A DNA stretch of 64,000 nt from the NCBI GenBank assembly GCA_964596185.1, contig CAZQUE010000001.1, forward strand, positions 6,545-70,544, written 5' to 3'. Positions 41,395 to 43,044 of the stretch are shown here, piece after piece. Below the pieces are notes generated by a model. The model did no database searches and was not told where the DNA came from. It worked only from the letters and a program-made list of their open reading frames with translations. The stretch's first letter is position 1. Every line of letters begins with the position of its first letter. The stretch comes from an uncultured bacterium. Lineage in GTDB: Bacteria; Muiribacteriota; Ozemobacteria; Ozemobacterales; Ozemobacteraceae. The translations under genes and the position numbers were made by a program.

Positions 41395-43044
41395 ATGATT
41401 CTTTTTGTGAGTGGTCTGCAAAATCTTTATCGCTCACCAACAGATTATGATACAGAAGTTTGCGACGGGCAAAACCTTGTTGAAATTCTTTGGCAAAGAT
41501 TCAGCCAGGCTCAGGTAATTTCTGAAATCAGCCTGGTATTACCTTCAAATATGGCCGGTTCGCTAATCGCTGAGAGTGCTAAAAGGCTTGGTTTGCCCAT
41601 TTTTTTGTTTGACGAAAAAAAAGTTGAGGAGAAACCCCTGGCCCTTAGGCAACAGAGATGGAATCTTGAGGATGATAGTGGTTGCGAAGAGTGGGTGGGT
41701 GCAGCTTTGCTCGAGCCGATTACTCAGTTTAAATGGTCGGAAGTGATTCTGCTGCCGCTGGAGAATCTTCTGGTTGAGCCAGAGTCTGTGCGGCAAAGTT
41801 TACAGCTTTTTGACCAGGAGAGCTTTGAAGTCTGTTTTTCGGCAGATCGGCAAACCGGAGCAAACTGGACCATTTTCAGTAGCGAAGTTTTACGGGCTAT
41901 GATGCTGAATCACGAGGATTTAATGTGGGCGAGGGGCGGTCTTGCCTGGGCGGTCCGCAAACCCTTGTACCCTTTCAAACTTGGATTTTTCCATTGCCCG
42001 AGAACCAGGCCGACTTTTAGCTGTGATTTGCGCTTTAACTCGCTGCGAAATCGCAGTGTGTTTGCGCAATCGGACAACAAGGATTTTGACAAGAAAAGCT
42101 TTAATTATGCAGATTGGCTTTCAGGCTCAGGATGGGAAAAATATTACACTGACTTTGCCCCGGCCAATGTTATTATTGAACCTTCTGCGGTTTGTCGAGC
42201 GGCTTGTAGTTGTTGCCCCCATCCTGGATTGCAGAGACGGCAGGGCATGATGACCAGTGAAACTTTCAGGCTGCTTCTAGCTGGTCTGGAGCATCGCGAA
42301 GAATTCCGCTTCATTTTCTCAGGTTTTGGCGAGCCATTGTTGAATCCTGCTTTGCCTGGAATGATCGAGCTTGTGGCGGACTGCTCAACGATGTTGATAA
42401 CTTCGTTGCAGCAGCTGCCTGCGGCGGATTTTCCCCTTTCGGCGGTGGATCAGCTTCGAATAAGTGTTGATGCACTTGAAGAAACCTCTTTTTCCCAATT
42501 GCGAAAAGGCTGTAACTGGAAAAATGTAGAAAAATTCATTGCTGATATAGCAGCTGGCAAAATTGAAGGTAAAGATATTTTACCCGAGATTGGCGTGACT
42601 ATGTTGAGAAGTCGCCATAACGAAGGTCTGGTTTTTCAATTTTTACAGTATTGGAAAAAAGTTGCTCGGCCAGTGTTTAATGAATGGTTTTTCAAGTGGC
42701 CATTTGATCGGCCCGATGACAAAATGCAATGGTATCAGATTCTTGGCGAAAATACCTTCTTGGGTGCCGTAGAAAAGACTACTTCAATAGATTATGTCCC
42801 AGTCAAGCGTCGCCCATGTCGGCACGCCTTGTTAACCGCGACGATTCTCTGGGATGGCTCGGTAACCCTTTGCCCTTATGATGTCGAAGGGAAGATGGTT
42901 GTGGGAAACGTAAAAACGCAGTCTTTTATTGACATCTGGCGTAGTGAGCGGTCGCAGGCCTTCAGAGCCGCTCATCTTAATCTTGATTTTGCCGGTGCTT
43001 CTGAGTTTTGTGGCGTATGCCGTGATTGGTATCACAATATCTGA
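41395..43044 (+). CDS. Fusion protein: degenerate cytidylyltransferase-like (SpsF/NeuA-fold) N-terminal domain plus radical SAM core with a C-terminal SPASM/twitch-like Cys-rich extension
   Basis: CRAACSCC (CxxxCxxC) at roughly residue 265, preceded by NVIIEPS. C-terminal Cys pattern ...RPCRH...LCPYD...FCGVC. The N-terminal roughly 250 aa align loosely with PseF at 59736 but lack the Gly-rich NTP loop. Confidence 0.6.
   Translation: MILFVSGLQNLYRSPTDYDTEVCDGQNLVEILWQRFSQAQVISEISLVLPSNMAGSLIAESAKRLGLPIFLFDEKKVEEKPLALRQQRWNLEDDSGCEEWVGAALLEPITQFKWSEVILLPLENLLVEPESVRQSLQLFDQESFEVCFSADRQTGANWTIFSSEVLRAMMLNHEDLMWARGGLAWAVRKPLYPFKLGFFHCPRTRPTFSCDLRFNSLRNRSVFAQSDNKDFDKKSFNYADWLSGSGWEKYYTDFAPANVIIEPSAVCRAACSCCPHPGLQRRQGMMTSETFRLLLAGLEHREEFRFIFSGFGEPLLNPALPGMIELVADCSTMLITSLQQLPAADFPLSAVDQLRISVDALEETSFSQLRKGCNWKNVEKFIADIAAGKIEGKDILPEIGVTMLRSRHNEGLVFQFLQYWKKVARPVFNEWFFKWPFDRPDDKMQWYQILGENTFLGAVEKTTSIDYVPVKRRPCRHALLTATILWDGSVTLCPYDVEGKMVVGNVKTQSFIDIWRSERSQAFRAAHLNLDFAGASEFCGVCRDWYHNI

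Follow-up and report, generated by a model that had tools for sequence, protein, structure and literature searches.

A degenerate cytidylyltransferase-like domain fused to a Twitch-type radical SAM enzyme beside the flagellin glycosylation genes of Riflebacteria

The DNA analysed here, a stretch of 64,000 nucleotides from an uncultured member of the Ozemobacteraceae (hereafter the window), contains a gene whose 549-aa product (hereafter the window protein; Table 1) consists, in this order, of a degenerate cytidylyltransferase-like N-terminal domain, a radical S-adenosylmethionine (SAM) core and a Twitch auxiliary domain. Its cluster-binding motifs are invariant in its own family, and in two phyla proteins of this layout are encoded in association with genes for nonulosonate synthesis and for Maf, the flagellin glycosyltransferase. 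With moderate confidence, we propose that the window protein is a functional Twitch radical SAM enzyme in which the degenerate cytidylyltransferase domain would hold a nucleotide-linked sugar for radical tailoring before its transfer by Maf. It is thus probably a previously unrecognised step in the decoration of flagella with sialic-acid-like sugars. In many bacteria, motility requires the attachment of pseudaminic- or legionaminic-type sugars to flagellin, and numerous unusual variants of these sugars are of unexplained origin.

Domain architecture and conserved motifs

The open reading frame (ORF) that a preliminary description had delimited from the sequence letters proved to be a single continuous gene on the forward strand with no internal stop. 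In public data, a protein of identical sequence (P0001) was present along with about 65 homologues of full length (38-81% identity), and a full-length AlphaFold2 model built on the family alignment reached a mean pLDDT of 91.9 and a pTM of 0.91. Because the ORF is continuous, the architecture is common to all these homologues and the model is confident as a whole, a mis-join or frameshift of two genes can be discarded and the fusion is real. The confident packing of the domains against each other in this model would fit a fixed geometry for handing over a substrate. In a Foldseek search, no solved chain spanned both domains, the top query-normalised TM-score being 0.38.

Conservation was assessed on a 35-sequence alignment and, separately for motifs, by counts over 58 retrieved full-length family members. 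The radical SAM cluster motif already named in the preliminary description (CRAACSCC) stood up to this comparison: C267, C271 and C274 were invariant in 35/35 aligned sequences, and the motif occurred in 58/58 members. Together with the match to the radical SAM fold, this count rules out a coincidental Cys motif. The second signature of the core, a GGE-type SAM-binding motif within a partial TIM-barrel fold, corresponds to invariant alignment columns and was found as GxG[ED]P in all 58 members. The invariance of both motifs argues for retained SAM chemistry in this family. Among profile hidden Markov models, the Pfam Radical_SAM model (PF04055) stayed below its cutoff on the window protein (21.7 bits on residues 261-391 vs. 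29.5); other family members clear that cutoff, including one divergent homologue (locus L040) with 42.4 bits and several homologues with precomputed PF04055 matches. NCBIfam radical SAM families matched the window protein at E-values of 1e-24 to 1e-14.

At the C-terminus, the auxiliary Cys motif announced earlier is present, but the SPASM label attached to it did not hold. The Pfam SPASM model matches residues 475-542 above its cutoff (50.5 bits); the motif itself reads C475-x12-G-x4-C493 followed by C539-x2-C542, with the CxxC seven residues from the C-terminus. The combination Cx9-15Gx4C plus C-terminal CxxC was counted in 56/58 members and the Cx2Cx5Cx3C of a full SPASM domain in 0/58, so that the seven-Cys pattern of two clusters is absent. 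In a phmmer alignment, C493, C539 and C542 fall on Cys residues of BtrN that we take to be ligands of its single auxiliary cluster. Since only four Cys are available, in a BtrN-like pattern and without Cx2Cx5Cx3C, the auxiliary domain is, as judged from its sequence, of the Twitch type with one cluster and not a two-cluster SPASM domain. Including these four and the three of the radical SAM motif, eight Cys are invariant in the alignment. The invariance of the eighth, C373 in the core, is limited to the Riflebacteria family.

Structural comparison placed the catalytic half closest to the sugar-acting radical SAM enzymes BtrN, BlsE and DesII, with BtrN ahead of MoaA (20.1 vs. 16.1); SuiB, SkfB and ChlB were also among the structural neighbours. 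BtrN, the 2-deoxy-scyllo-inosamine dehydrogenase of the butirosin pathway (4m7s/4m7t), is a single module of 250 aa that acts on a free aminocyclitol and has no nucleotide-binding domain. In contrast to BtrN, the window protein has an insertion of about 45 residues (FFKWPF...QWYQILGE) ahead of the Twitch domain, as well as the extra C373. DesII and BlsE act on TDP-4-amino-4,6-dideoxyglucose and cytosylglucuronate, respectively, without a fused nucleotide-binding domain, and both lie outside flagellin or nonulosonate pathways. The sequence likeness to BlsE is marginal (TIGR04466, E 2e-4, in the L040 homologue only).

The N-terminal domain had been described as resembling the SpsF/PseF fold of CMP-sugar synthetases without their nucleotide-binding loop, and this was borne out. 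Modelled by themselves, the N-terminal 250 residues reached a pLDDT of 91.6 and showed the Rossmann-like alpha/beta fold of nucleotidyltransferases, with 6oew from Leptospira borgpetersenii as the closest structural match. Sequence comparison alone would hardly have led there. For residues 1-250, Pfam remained silent even at E<=10, with no recognition by PF02348, and NCBIfam reported no nucleotidyltransferase family; the profile of the domain had no significant match among PDB sequences, and a search of 1.84 billion entries retrieved nothing outside its own family (nine cluster representatives). Alignment with true cytidylyltransferases by hhalign gave a probability of 6-7% only, in a register that agrees with the fold (GRPVLEYVV onto GQNLVEILW and ITADCPLVDP onto LPLENLLVEP). 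The nucleotide/phosphate loop (Q/L)AR-GS-(R/G)L-(G/N)K is present in 7/7 aligned true cytidylyltransferases and in no member of the window protein's family; the window protein reads FVSGLQNLYRSPT at this place. The sequence relation of this domain to cytidylyltransferases thus appears almost erased, and we regard it as a putative binding-only module.

Even without the loop, the N-terminal domain is highly conserved within the family, and its most conserved block is an insertion relative to true cytidylyltransferases. Its strongly conserved 24-residue segment QQRWxLEDDSGxxxWxGA has a counterpart in the related Phycisphaerae family described below, which reads ARRWADGWRGG, and W89 is invariant in both families. 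Several Arg are invariant (R35, R203 and R213) or nearly so (R13, R180, R205 and R218) in the 35-sequence alignment. Compared with an SpsF/PseF-type cytidylyltransferase such as 6oew, a stand-alone enzyme with an AR-GS-RLPGK loop, the N-terminal domain is 11% identical, escapes recognition by the corresponding models, lacks the loop, carries the insertion and is fused to a radical SAM enzyme. An intact enzyme of the SpsF type is encoded in the window itself, carries IQARMGSSRLPGK and matches 6oew over its whole length (phmmer E 1.7e-47), so that the N-terminal domain is structurally nearest to the type of enzyme found in the pse cluster of its own genome. This intact cytidylyltransferase likely represents the type from which the domain evolved, and it is also the likely maker of the putative CMP-sugar ligand.

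Relatives in other phyla

The family of the window protein was found in 32 of 185,579 species genomes scanned, and the roughly 65 homologues, wherever their source is named, come from Candidatus Riflebacteria, Rifleibacteriota or Ozemobacteraceae metagenome-assembled genomes. Since nearly all taxon-labelled records belong to Riflebacteria/Ozemobacteraceae, with two odd labels, the family is essentially confined to this phylum, to which the genome of the window also belongs. Two records, entitled 'Candidatus Methylomirabilis sp.' (L011, DYKG01000018.1, with a 57% identical homologue) and 'Erysipelotrichia bacterium' (L012, SABV01000023.1, 48% identical), each hold a complete flagellar locus of the Riflebacteria type, and these contigs are probably mis-binned or mislabelled.

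A weak match, P0066, led to a second family, which comprises more than 700 Phycisphaerae/Tepidisphaeraceae proteins with a length of about 540 aa (proteins P0066 and P0080-P0198; loci L008, L009, L042 and L043). Although members are only about 19% identical to the window protein, the two families align over both domains (hhalign 99.7%, E 3e-25, columns 30-557 vs. 25-543). The N-terminal domain of the Phycisphaerae family aligns with true cytidylyltransferases at a probability of 85% (E 6e-6), and this, combined with the full-length homology, provides transitive sequence support for the assignment that was made by structure in the window protein. The same insertion relative to cytidylyltransferases is found in both fused families, which also have in common the Twitch Cys, GxG(D/E)P and neighbouring genes for Maf and nonulosonate synthesis. 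In 4/4 Phycisphaerae loci examined, the gene (X) stands in the order Maf, X, CTP_transf_3, NeuB, Epimerase_2, on one strand and with overlaps or very short gaps. This arrangement is a complete minimal operon for nonulosonate synthesis and transfer, in which X is directly operonic with Maf/NeuA/NeuB/NeuC and in which neither pterin-4a-carbinolamine dehydratase (PCD) nor NadA is encoded. The survey of homologue neighbourhoods proposed in the preliminary description thus showed, for two phyla, that homologues co-occur with genes for Maf and nonulosonate synthesis.

The Phycisphaerae family departs from that of the window protein in its clusters. The Twitch Cys and GxGDP are kept in 117/120 members, yet CxxxCxxC occurs in 0/120, and C373 is likewise not kept; three N-terminal domain Cys (C41, C93 and C196 of P0066) are invariant in this family only. 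These proteins may be pseudo-radical-SAM enzymes, or may bind a cluster through non-canonical ligands. Because a sister family without CxxxCxxC is maintained beside Maf, the role shared by the scaffold may be non-radical.

Among named families, the best NCBIfam match of the window protein was TIGR04321 ('spiro-SPASM protein'), with 87 bits against a cutoff of 250, so that by score it does not belong to this family. The alignment joins residues 249-546 to model positions 223-506 of 510, so that the N-terminal domain is not recognised; the L040 homologue scored 93.6 bits (model positions 122-506) and P0066 138 bits. Since the intact cytidylyltransferase of the window matches model positions 24-183, the N-terminal region of TIGR04321 is itself cytidylyltransferase-like. 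Compared through this model, spiro-SPASM proteins have the same order of modules as the window protein, namely a cytidylyltransferase-like region, a radical SAM domain and a SPASM domain. TIGR04321 is spirochaetal by name, whereas the family described here is one of Riflebacteria, judging by nearly all of its taxon-labelled records, and not of Spirochaetes. It is also an uncharacterised family, and membership would not explain the mechanism of the window protein. The preliminary description knew of no characterised enzyme with this architecture in a flagellin glycan pathway. This still applies to characterised enzymes; the layout is nevertheless shared with TIGR04321 and with the large Phycisphaerae family. 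Thus, the combination of a cytidylyltransferase-like domain and a radical SAM enzyme is that of a wider superfamily without characterised member, and the window protein is a new variant, at the family level, among Twitch radical SAM enzymes that act on sugars and among proteins with the uncharacterised spiro-SPASM layout.

Literature searches found no paper on spiro-SPASM, TIGR04321 or 6OEW. The papers found on Maf or flagellin glycosylation make no mention of radical SAM, and those mentioning radical SAM and pseudaminic acid together draw no connection between them. In Treponema denticola, a species in which Maf is present, flagellins are modified with a nonulosonate of Pse configuration that bears an unusual acyl group (PMC13439194). 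In T. pallidum, TPASS_0285 is listed as a SPASM iron-sulfur protein near the methyltransferase 0289 and the HAD-family protein 0290 (PMC4403809, PMC5951579), and TP0284 and TP0285 were merged into a single gene in re-annotated genomes (PMC3265458). A merged TP0284/TP0285 would be compatible with a spiro-SPASM protein of two domains encoded among genes for glycan modification, which we consider a lead rather than a test.

When annotated plasmids were searched with the window protein, only stand-alone relatives of its catalytic half were retrieved, scoring about 87 bits on TIGR04321. Those of Lawsonia and Solidesulfovibrio immediately adjoin genes for DegT/DnrJ/EryC1 sugar aminotransferases, methyltransferases and an acetyltransferase, and the pairing with an aminotransferase recalls what we take to be the pairing of DesI with DesII. 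A relative on plasmid p2 of Azospirillum argentinense (L044, 8182-10002) is 606 aa long and corresponds to the catalytic half with an hhalign probability of 99.1%. Its N-terminus was checked for a nucleotidyltransferase domain and consists of a TPR (MamA-like) domain instead. Some relatives may therefore target proteins, and the comparison of these sequences suggests that modules for substrate recognition can be swapped at the N-terminal position. The Azospirillum gene adjoins two genes for beta-glucosidases of glycoside hydrolase family 1 (GH1), and the L040 member is also directly preceded by a GH1 gene; this shared neighbour may be a coincidence or a second conserved association.

These relatives bring in a different role for the protein, that of an accessory factor of Maf, or of one that hands it the sugar donor, which would bind the labile CMP-nonulosonate, Maf or flagellin and deliver or gate the donor. 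Its iron-sulfur clusters would then be structural or redox-sensing, and the radical chemistry of the Riflebacteria family either secondary or aimed at a protein, for example flagellin or Maf. Such a factor would account for the Phycisphaerae homologues, which follow Maf directly in all loci examined and have lost the Cys triad while keeping the Twitch Cys and GxGDP, and for the joining of the same catalytic half to a protein-binding TPR domain in Azospirillum; Maf systems moreover need accessory proteins such as GlfM (bioRxiv 10.1101/2023.12.03.569772). Arguments against it are the invariance of CxxxCxxC and GxGEP in the Riflebacteria family, an N-terminal fold that is nucleotide-binding and not protein-binding, and the presence of FliS and a small ORF between Maf and the window protein in Riflebacteria. 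We therefore regard this role as unlikely.

Genomic setting in the window and in other Riflebacteria

In the window, the gene order is large flagellins, FlaG, FliD, a 208-aa protein, Maf, FliS, a small ORF, a hairpin, the radical SAM gene and PCD (Table 1). On the 3' side of PCD is a cassette of lower GC content with an acyl carrier protein (ACP)-like ORF, an AAC(3)-like acyltransferase, a methyltransferase and FkbH on the forward strand, followed by DUF4910 and GNAT genes on the reverse strand. Farther downstream are UDP-glucose dehydrogenase, NTP-transferase, epimerase, PseB, PseC (TIGR03588, 463 bits), the intact cytidylyltransferase, PseG and a second Maf/PseD. The gene had been described as flanked by fliS and by Pse, ACP and FkbH genes. 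FkbH and the Pse genes are indeed nearby, but its immediate neighbours are the small ORF with the hairpin upstream and PCD downstream, with fliS one gene further; for the ACP gene, the only support is a GWDS motif within an ORF of 76 aa that matches no profile model.

Table 1. Features of the window around the radical SAM gene (positions in the window; residues are those of the window protein)
Feature	Position	Strand	Evidence or remarks
Maf-type flagellin glycosyltransferase (MptE-like)	38705..40648	+	Pfam E 1.1e-38
FliS flagellin chaperone	40645..41073	+	Pfam E 1.1e-37
Conserved small ORF (59-62 aa) between fliS and the radical SAM gene	41086..41274	+	Kept in >30 Riflebacteria loci
Hairpin of 17 bp plus T-run, intrinsic-terminator-like, between small ORF and radical SAM gene	41291..41330	+	dG -25.8 kcal/mol, z -4.5
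Complete coding sequence, fused nucleotidyltransferase-like / radical SAM / Twitch protein	41395..43044	+	ORF list, 549 aa
N-terminal domain, degenerate SpsF-type cytidylyltransferase (nucleotidyltransferase) fold	41395..42099	+	Residues 1-235
Most conserved N-terminal block, EKPxxLxQQRWxLEDDSGxxxWxGA	41629..41706	+	Residues 79-104; alignment, hhalign
Radical SAM core	42160..42804	+	Residues 256-470
CxxxCxxC cluster-binding motif	42193..42216	+	C267, C271, C274
GxGEP (GGE-type) SAM-binding motif	42322..42336	+	G310, G312, E313, P314
Extra core Cys	42511..42513	+	C373; invariant in the 35-sequence alignment
Twitch-type auxiliary [4Fe-4S] domain	42805..43041	+	Residues 471-549; C475, G488, C493, C539, C542
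PCD, conserved downstream neighbour	43184..43504	+	Pfam E 3e-26
Intact SpsF-type cytidylyltransferase between pseC and pseG	59736..60509	+	phmmer match to 6oew

A tblastn census covered 32 genome loci, 29 of which had usable upstream sequence. In 27 of these 29, the gene is immediately preceded, on the same strand, by the pair FliS and small ORF (in L023 by FliS only), and in most of the 27 FlaG, FliD, the 208-aa gene and Maf precede FliS; Maf was syntenic in most loci having enough upstream sequence. Within the phylum, the gene is strongly linked to the flagellin operon by position, though not universally. For L039 and L040, the members that diverge most (35% identity), no flagellar gene lies within 8 kb, and the L040 gene (6558-7961) is flanked by the GH1 glycosidase immediately upstream and by DXP synthase. 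Nor is the linkage probably one of simple co-transcription in most lineages. In five gut or rumen genomes, the small ORF and the radical SAM gene abut or overlap; most other loci have a gap of 90-390 bp occupied by a strong hairpin with T-run. In the window, this hairpin was missed by a consensus terminator scan (AT-rich), and its strength was revealed by RNA folding. The interval from the hairpin to the start codon contained no sigma-70-like promoter, in a search that did not include sigma-28 promoters.

On the downstream side, PCD follows in about 21 loci. In Ozemobacteraceae-type loci, a gene for quinolinate synthase (NadA) is inserted between the radical SAM gene and PCD with gaps of about 30 bp (PCD/NadA arrangements: L002, L003, L006, L023-L025, L027, L029 and L032), an arrangement that may reflect either functional coupling or close packing among housekeeping genes. 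The gene might thus be the first of an operon with PCD (and NadA) and encode a non-flagellar housekeeping enzyme, acting on a nucleotide or cofactor in the manner of MoaA/MobA, in which case the synteny with fliS would merely be inherited. Besides the upstream hairpin, the gaps of 27-58 bp to PCD/NadA in other loci and the frequency of PCD, the non-flagellar contexts of L039 and L040 could be read in this way, as could the presence of MobA-related structures, MoaA and a 'tungsten cofactor rSAM maturase' family among the matches. The catalytic half is, however, closer to BtrN than to MoaA; PCD and NadA are both missing downstream in several loci; the small ORF and the gene are joined in the five genomes mentioned above; and the independent Phycisphaerae operons tie the scaffold to Maf/NeuA/NeuB/NeuC with neither PCD nor NadA. 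A housekeeping function is accordingly improbable in our view.

The small ORF has no Pfam or NCBIfam match, and its product follows the pattern ...ADLMKILETSQQ...GLGxxxDLYA. It may resemble the small motility proteins of the YjfB type, an identification that neither database supported. A conserved short peptide encoded directly upstream in more than 30 loci brings to mind the ribosomally synthesised and post-translationally modified peptides (RiPPs), as SPASM/Twitch enzymes often act on adjacent peptides. The radical SAM enzyme would then mature this peptide, for instance at its C-terminal D-x-Y-A, in the manner of MftC or PqqE, and SuiB, SkfB and ChlB are indeed among its structural neighbours, in addition to weak C-terminal matches to a mycofactocin maturase family. 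Neither Pfam nor NCBIfam detected an RRE/PqqD-like peptide-binding domain in the window protein, the N-terminal domain having a nucleotidyltransferase fold instead. In the peptide, which may rather be a small protein of the flagellar locus, no Cys is invariant and the C-terminal Tyr varies (DVTA, DLTA, DQYV), the terminator-like hairpin lies between both genes in most loci, and no match to the small ORF was seen upstream in L039, L040 or the Phycisphaerae operons. Peptide maturation thus seems very improbable.

Several other genes of the locus deserve mention. The 208-aa protein between FliD and Maf (38079-38705, +) has no match in a Pfam scan of the window copy, and its orthologues carry precomputed Pfam matches to TP0873_N, named for a T. 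pallidum protein, and DUF8042; by analogy with GlfM, it could be an adaptor of Maf. The lower-GC cassette (about 43600-50750, GC 0.40 vs. about 0.45-0.47 elsewhere) also holds a DUF4910/DUF2172/HTH_47 protein and a 333-aa gene of no assigned family. L001, L004 and several more loci lack this cassette at the corresponding position, L005 has it in another arrangement, and it looks like a variable glycan-acylation island. Several flagellin genes of the locus are very large; Flagellin_N and Flagellin_C were confirmed in two of them (12983-15583, +, 866 aa; 32016-34280, +, 754 aa), and the stretch 20809-34280 includes four further tandem ORFs of 747-773 aa starting at 20809, 24296, 26916 and 29461 (+). 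Among the flagellin genes are two multidomain sulfur-handling oxidoreductases (15658-17349, -; 17976-20420, +), both with Pyr_redox_2 and rhodanese domains and the latter with TusA and DsrE in addition. The PseG-like ORF (60500-61780, +, 426 aa) is covered by the PseG model at residues 17-286, and the approximately 140 C-terminal residues beyond could form a further module, perhaps a fused PseH-type acetyltransferase.

Proposed reaction and implications

If the window protein tailors a nucleotide-linked sugar, the N-terminal domain would hold the nucleotide handle and present the sugar to the radical SAM barrel. The ligand would most likely be a CMP-nonulosonate of the Pse type, supplied by the locus's own intact cytidylyltransferase, or else a UDP-linked amino-sugar precursor. 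The [4Fe-4S] cluster bound by C267, C271 and C274 would reductively cleave SAM to generate a 5'-deoxyadenosyl radical, which would take a hydrogen from a sugar carbon, and the fully Cys-ligated Twitch cluster would handle the electron, as in BtrN. The outcome may be a BtrN-like dehydrogenation, a DesII-like elimination or an epimerisation, after which Maf would move the tailored sugar onto the giant flagellins. The analysis shows the architecture, the folds, the conservation of motifs and the gene association in two phyla; the ligand, the type of reaction and the place and direction of this step in the pathway are inferred. The preliminary description had already suggested radical chemistry on a CMP- or UDP-linked nonulosonate, a reading that is thus supported in part.

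The proposal is favoured by the transitive sequence support for the N-terminal domain, by the high conservation and the many invariant Arg of that domain despite the missing loop, by the intact radical SAM and Twitch motifs, by the aminotransferase genes beside stand-alone relatives of the catalytic half, by the gene associations in both phyla and by the confident packing of the domains. Several of the observations reported above weigh against it. Synteny inside one phylum is weak evidence by itself, and here the terminator-like hairpin parts the gene from fliS and the small ORF in the window and in most lineages, while short gaps tie it downstream, in other loci, to the housekeeping-looking PCD and NadA. 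The two most divergent members are encoded away from flagellar genes. The Phycisphaerae family has kept its position in the Maf/nonulosonate operon without CxxxCxxC, and the Azospirillum relative has a TPR domain in the place of the nucleotidyltransferase domain.

A broader version of the proposal can be put forward more tentatively. Maf-type nonulosonate glycosylation of flagellins would have an unrecognised component common to several phyla, in which a former cytidylyltransferase that holds the CMP-sugar is combined with a Twitch radical SAM enzyme, in Riflebacteria, in Phycisphaerae and probably in the 'spiro-SPASM' proteins of spirochaetes. Tailoring would take place directly on the CMP-activated nine-carbon sugar, and one lineage would later have lost the radical cluster and kept a non-radical role. 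To our knowledge, CMP-activated nine-carbon sugars are not a substrate class of radical SAM enzymes.

Should tailoring of a CMP-linked nonulosonate by the window protein be confirmed, such sugars would become a new substrate class in radical SAM enzymology, and the protein would illustrate how a catalytic nucleotidyltransferase can be recycled as a substrate-binding module. The sister family of Phycisphaerae, deprived of the radical cluster and maintained in the same operon position, offers a natural experiment on the role of the scaffold. The orphan 'spiro-SPASM' family would also gain a function, its apparent presence in the reduced genome of T. pallidum being a lead from the literature only.

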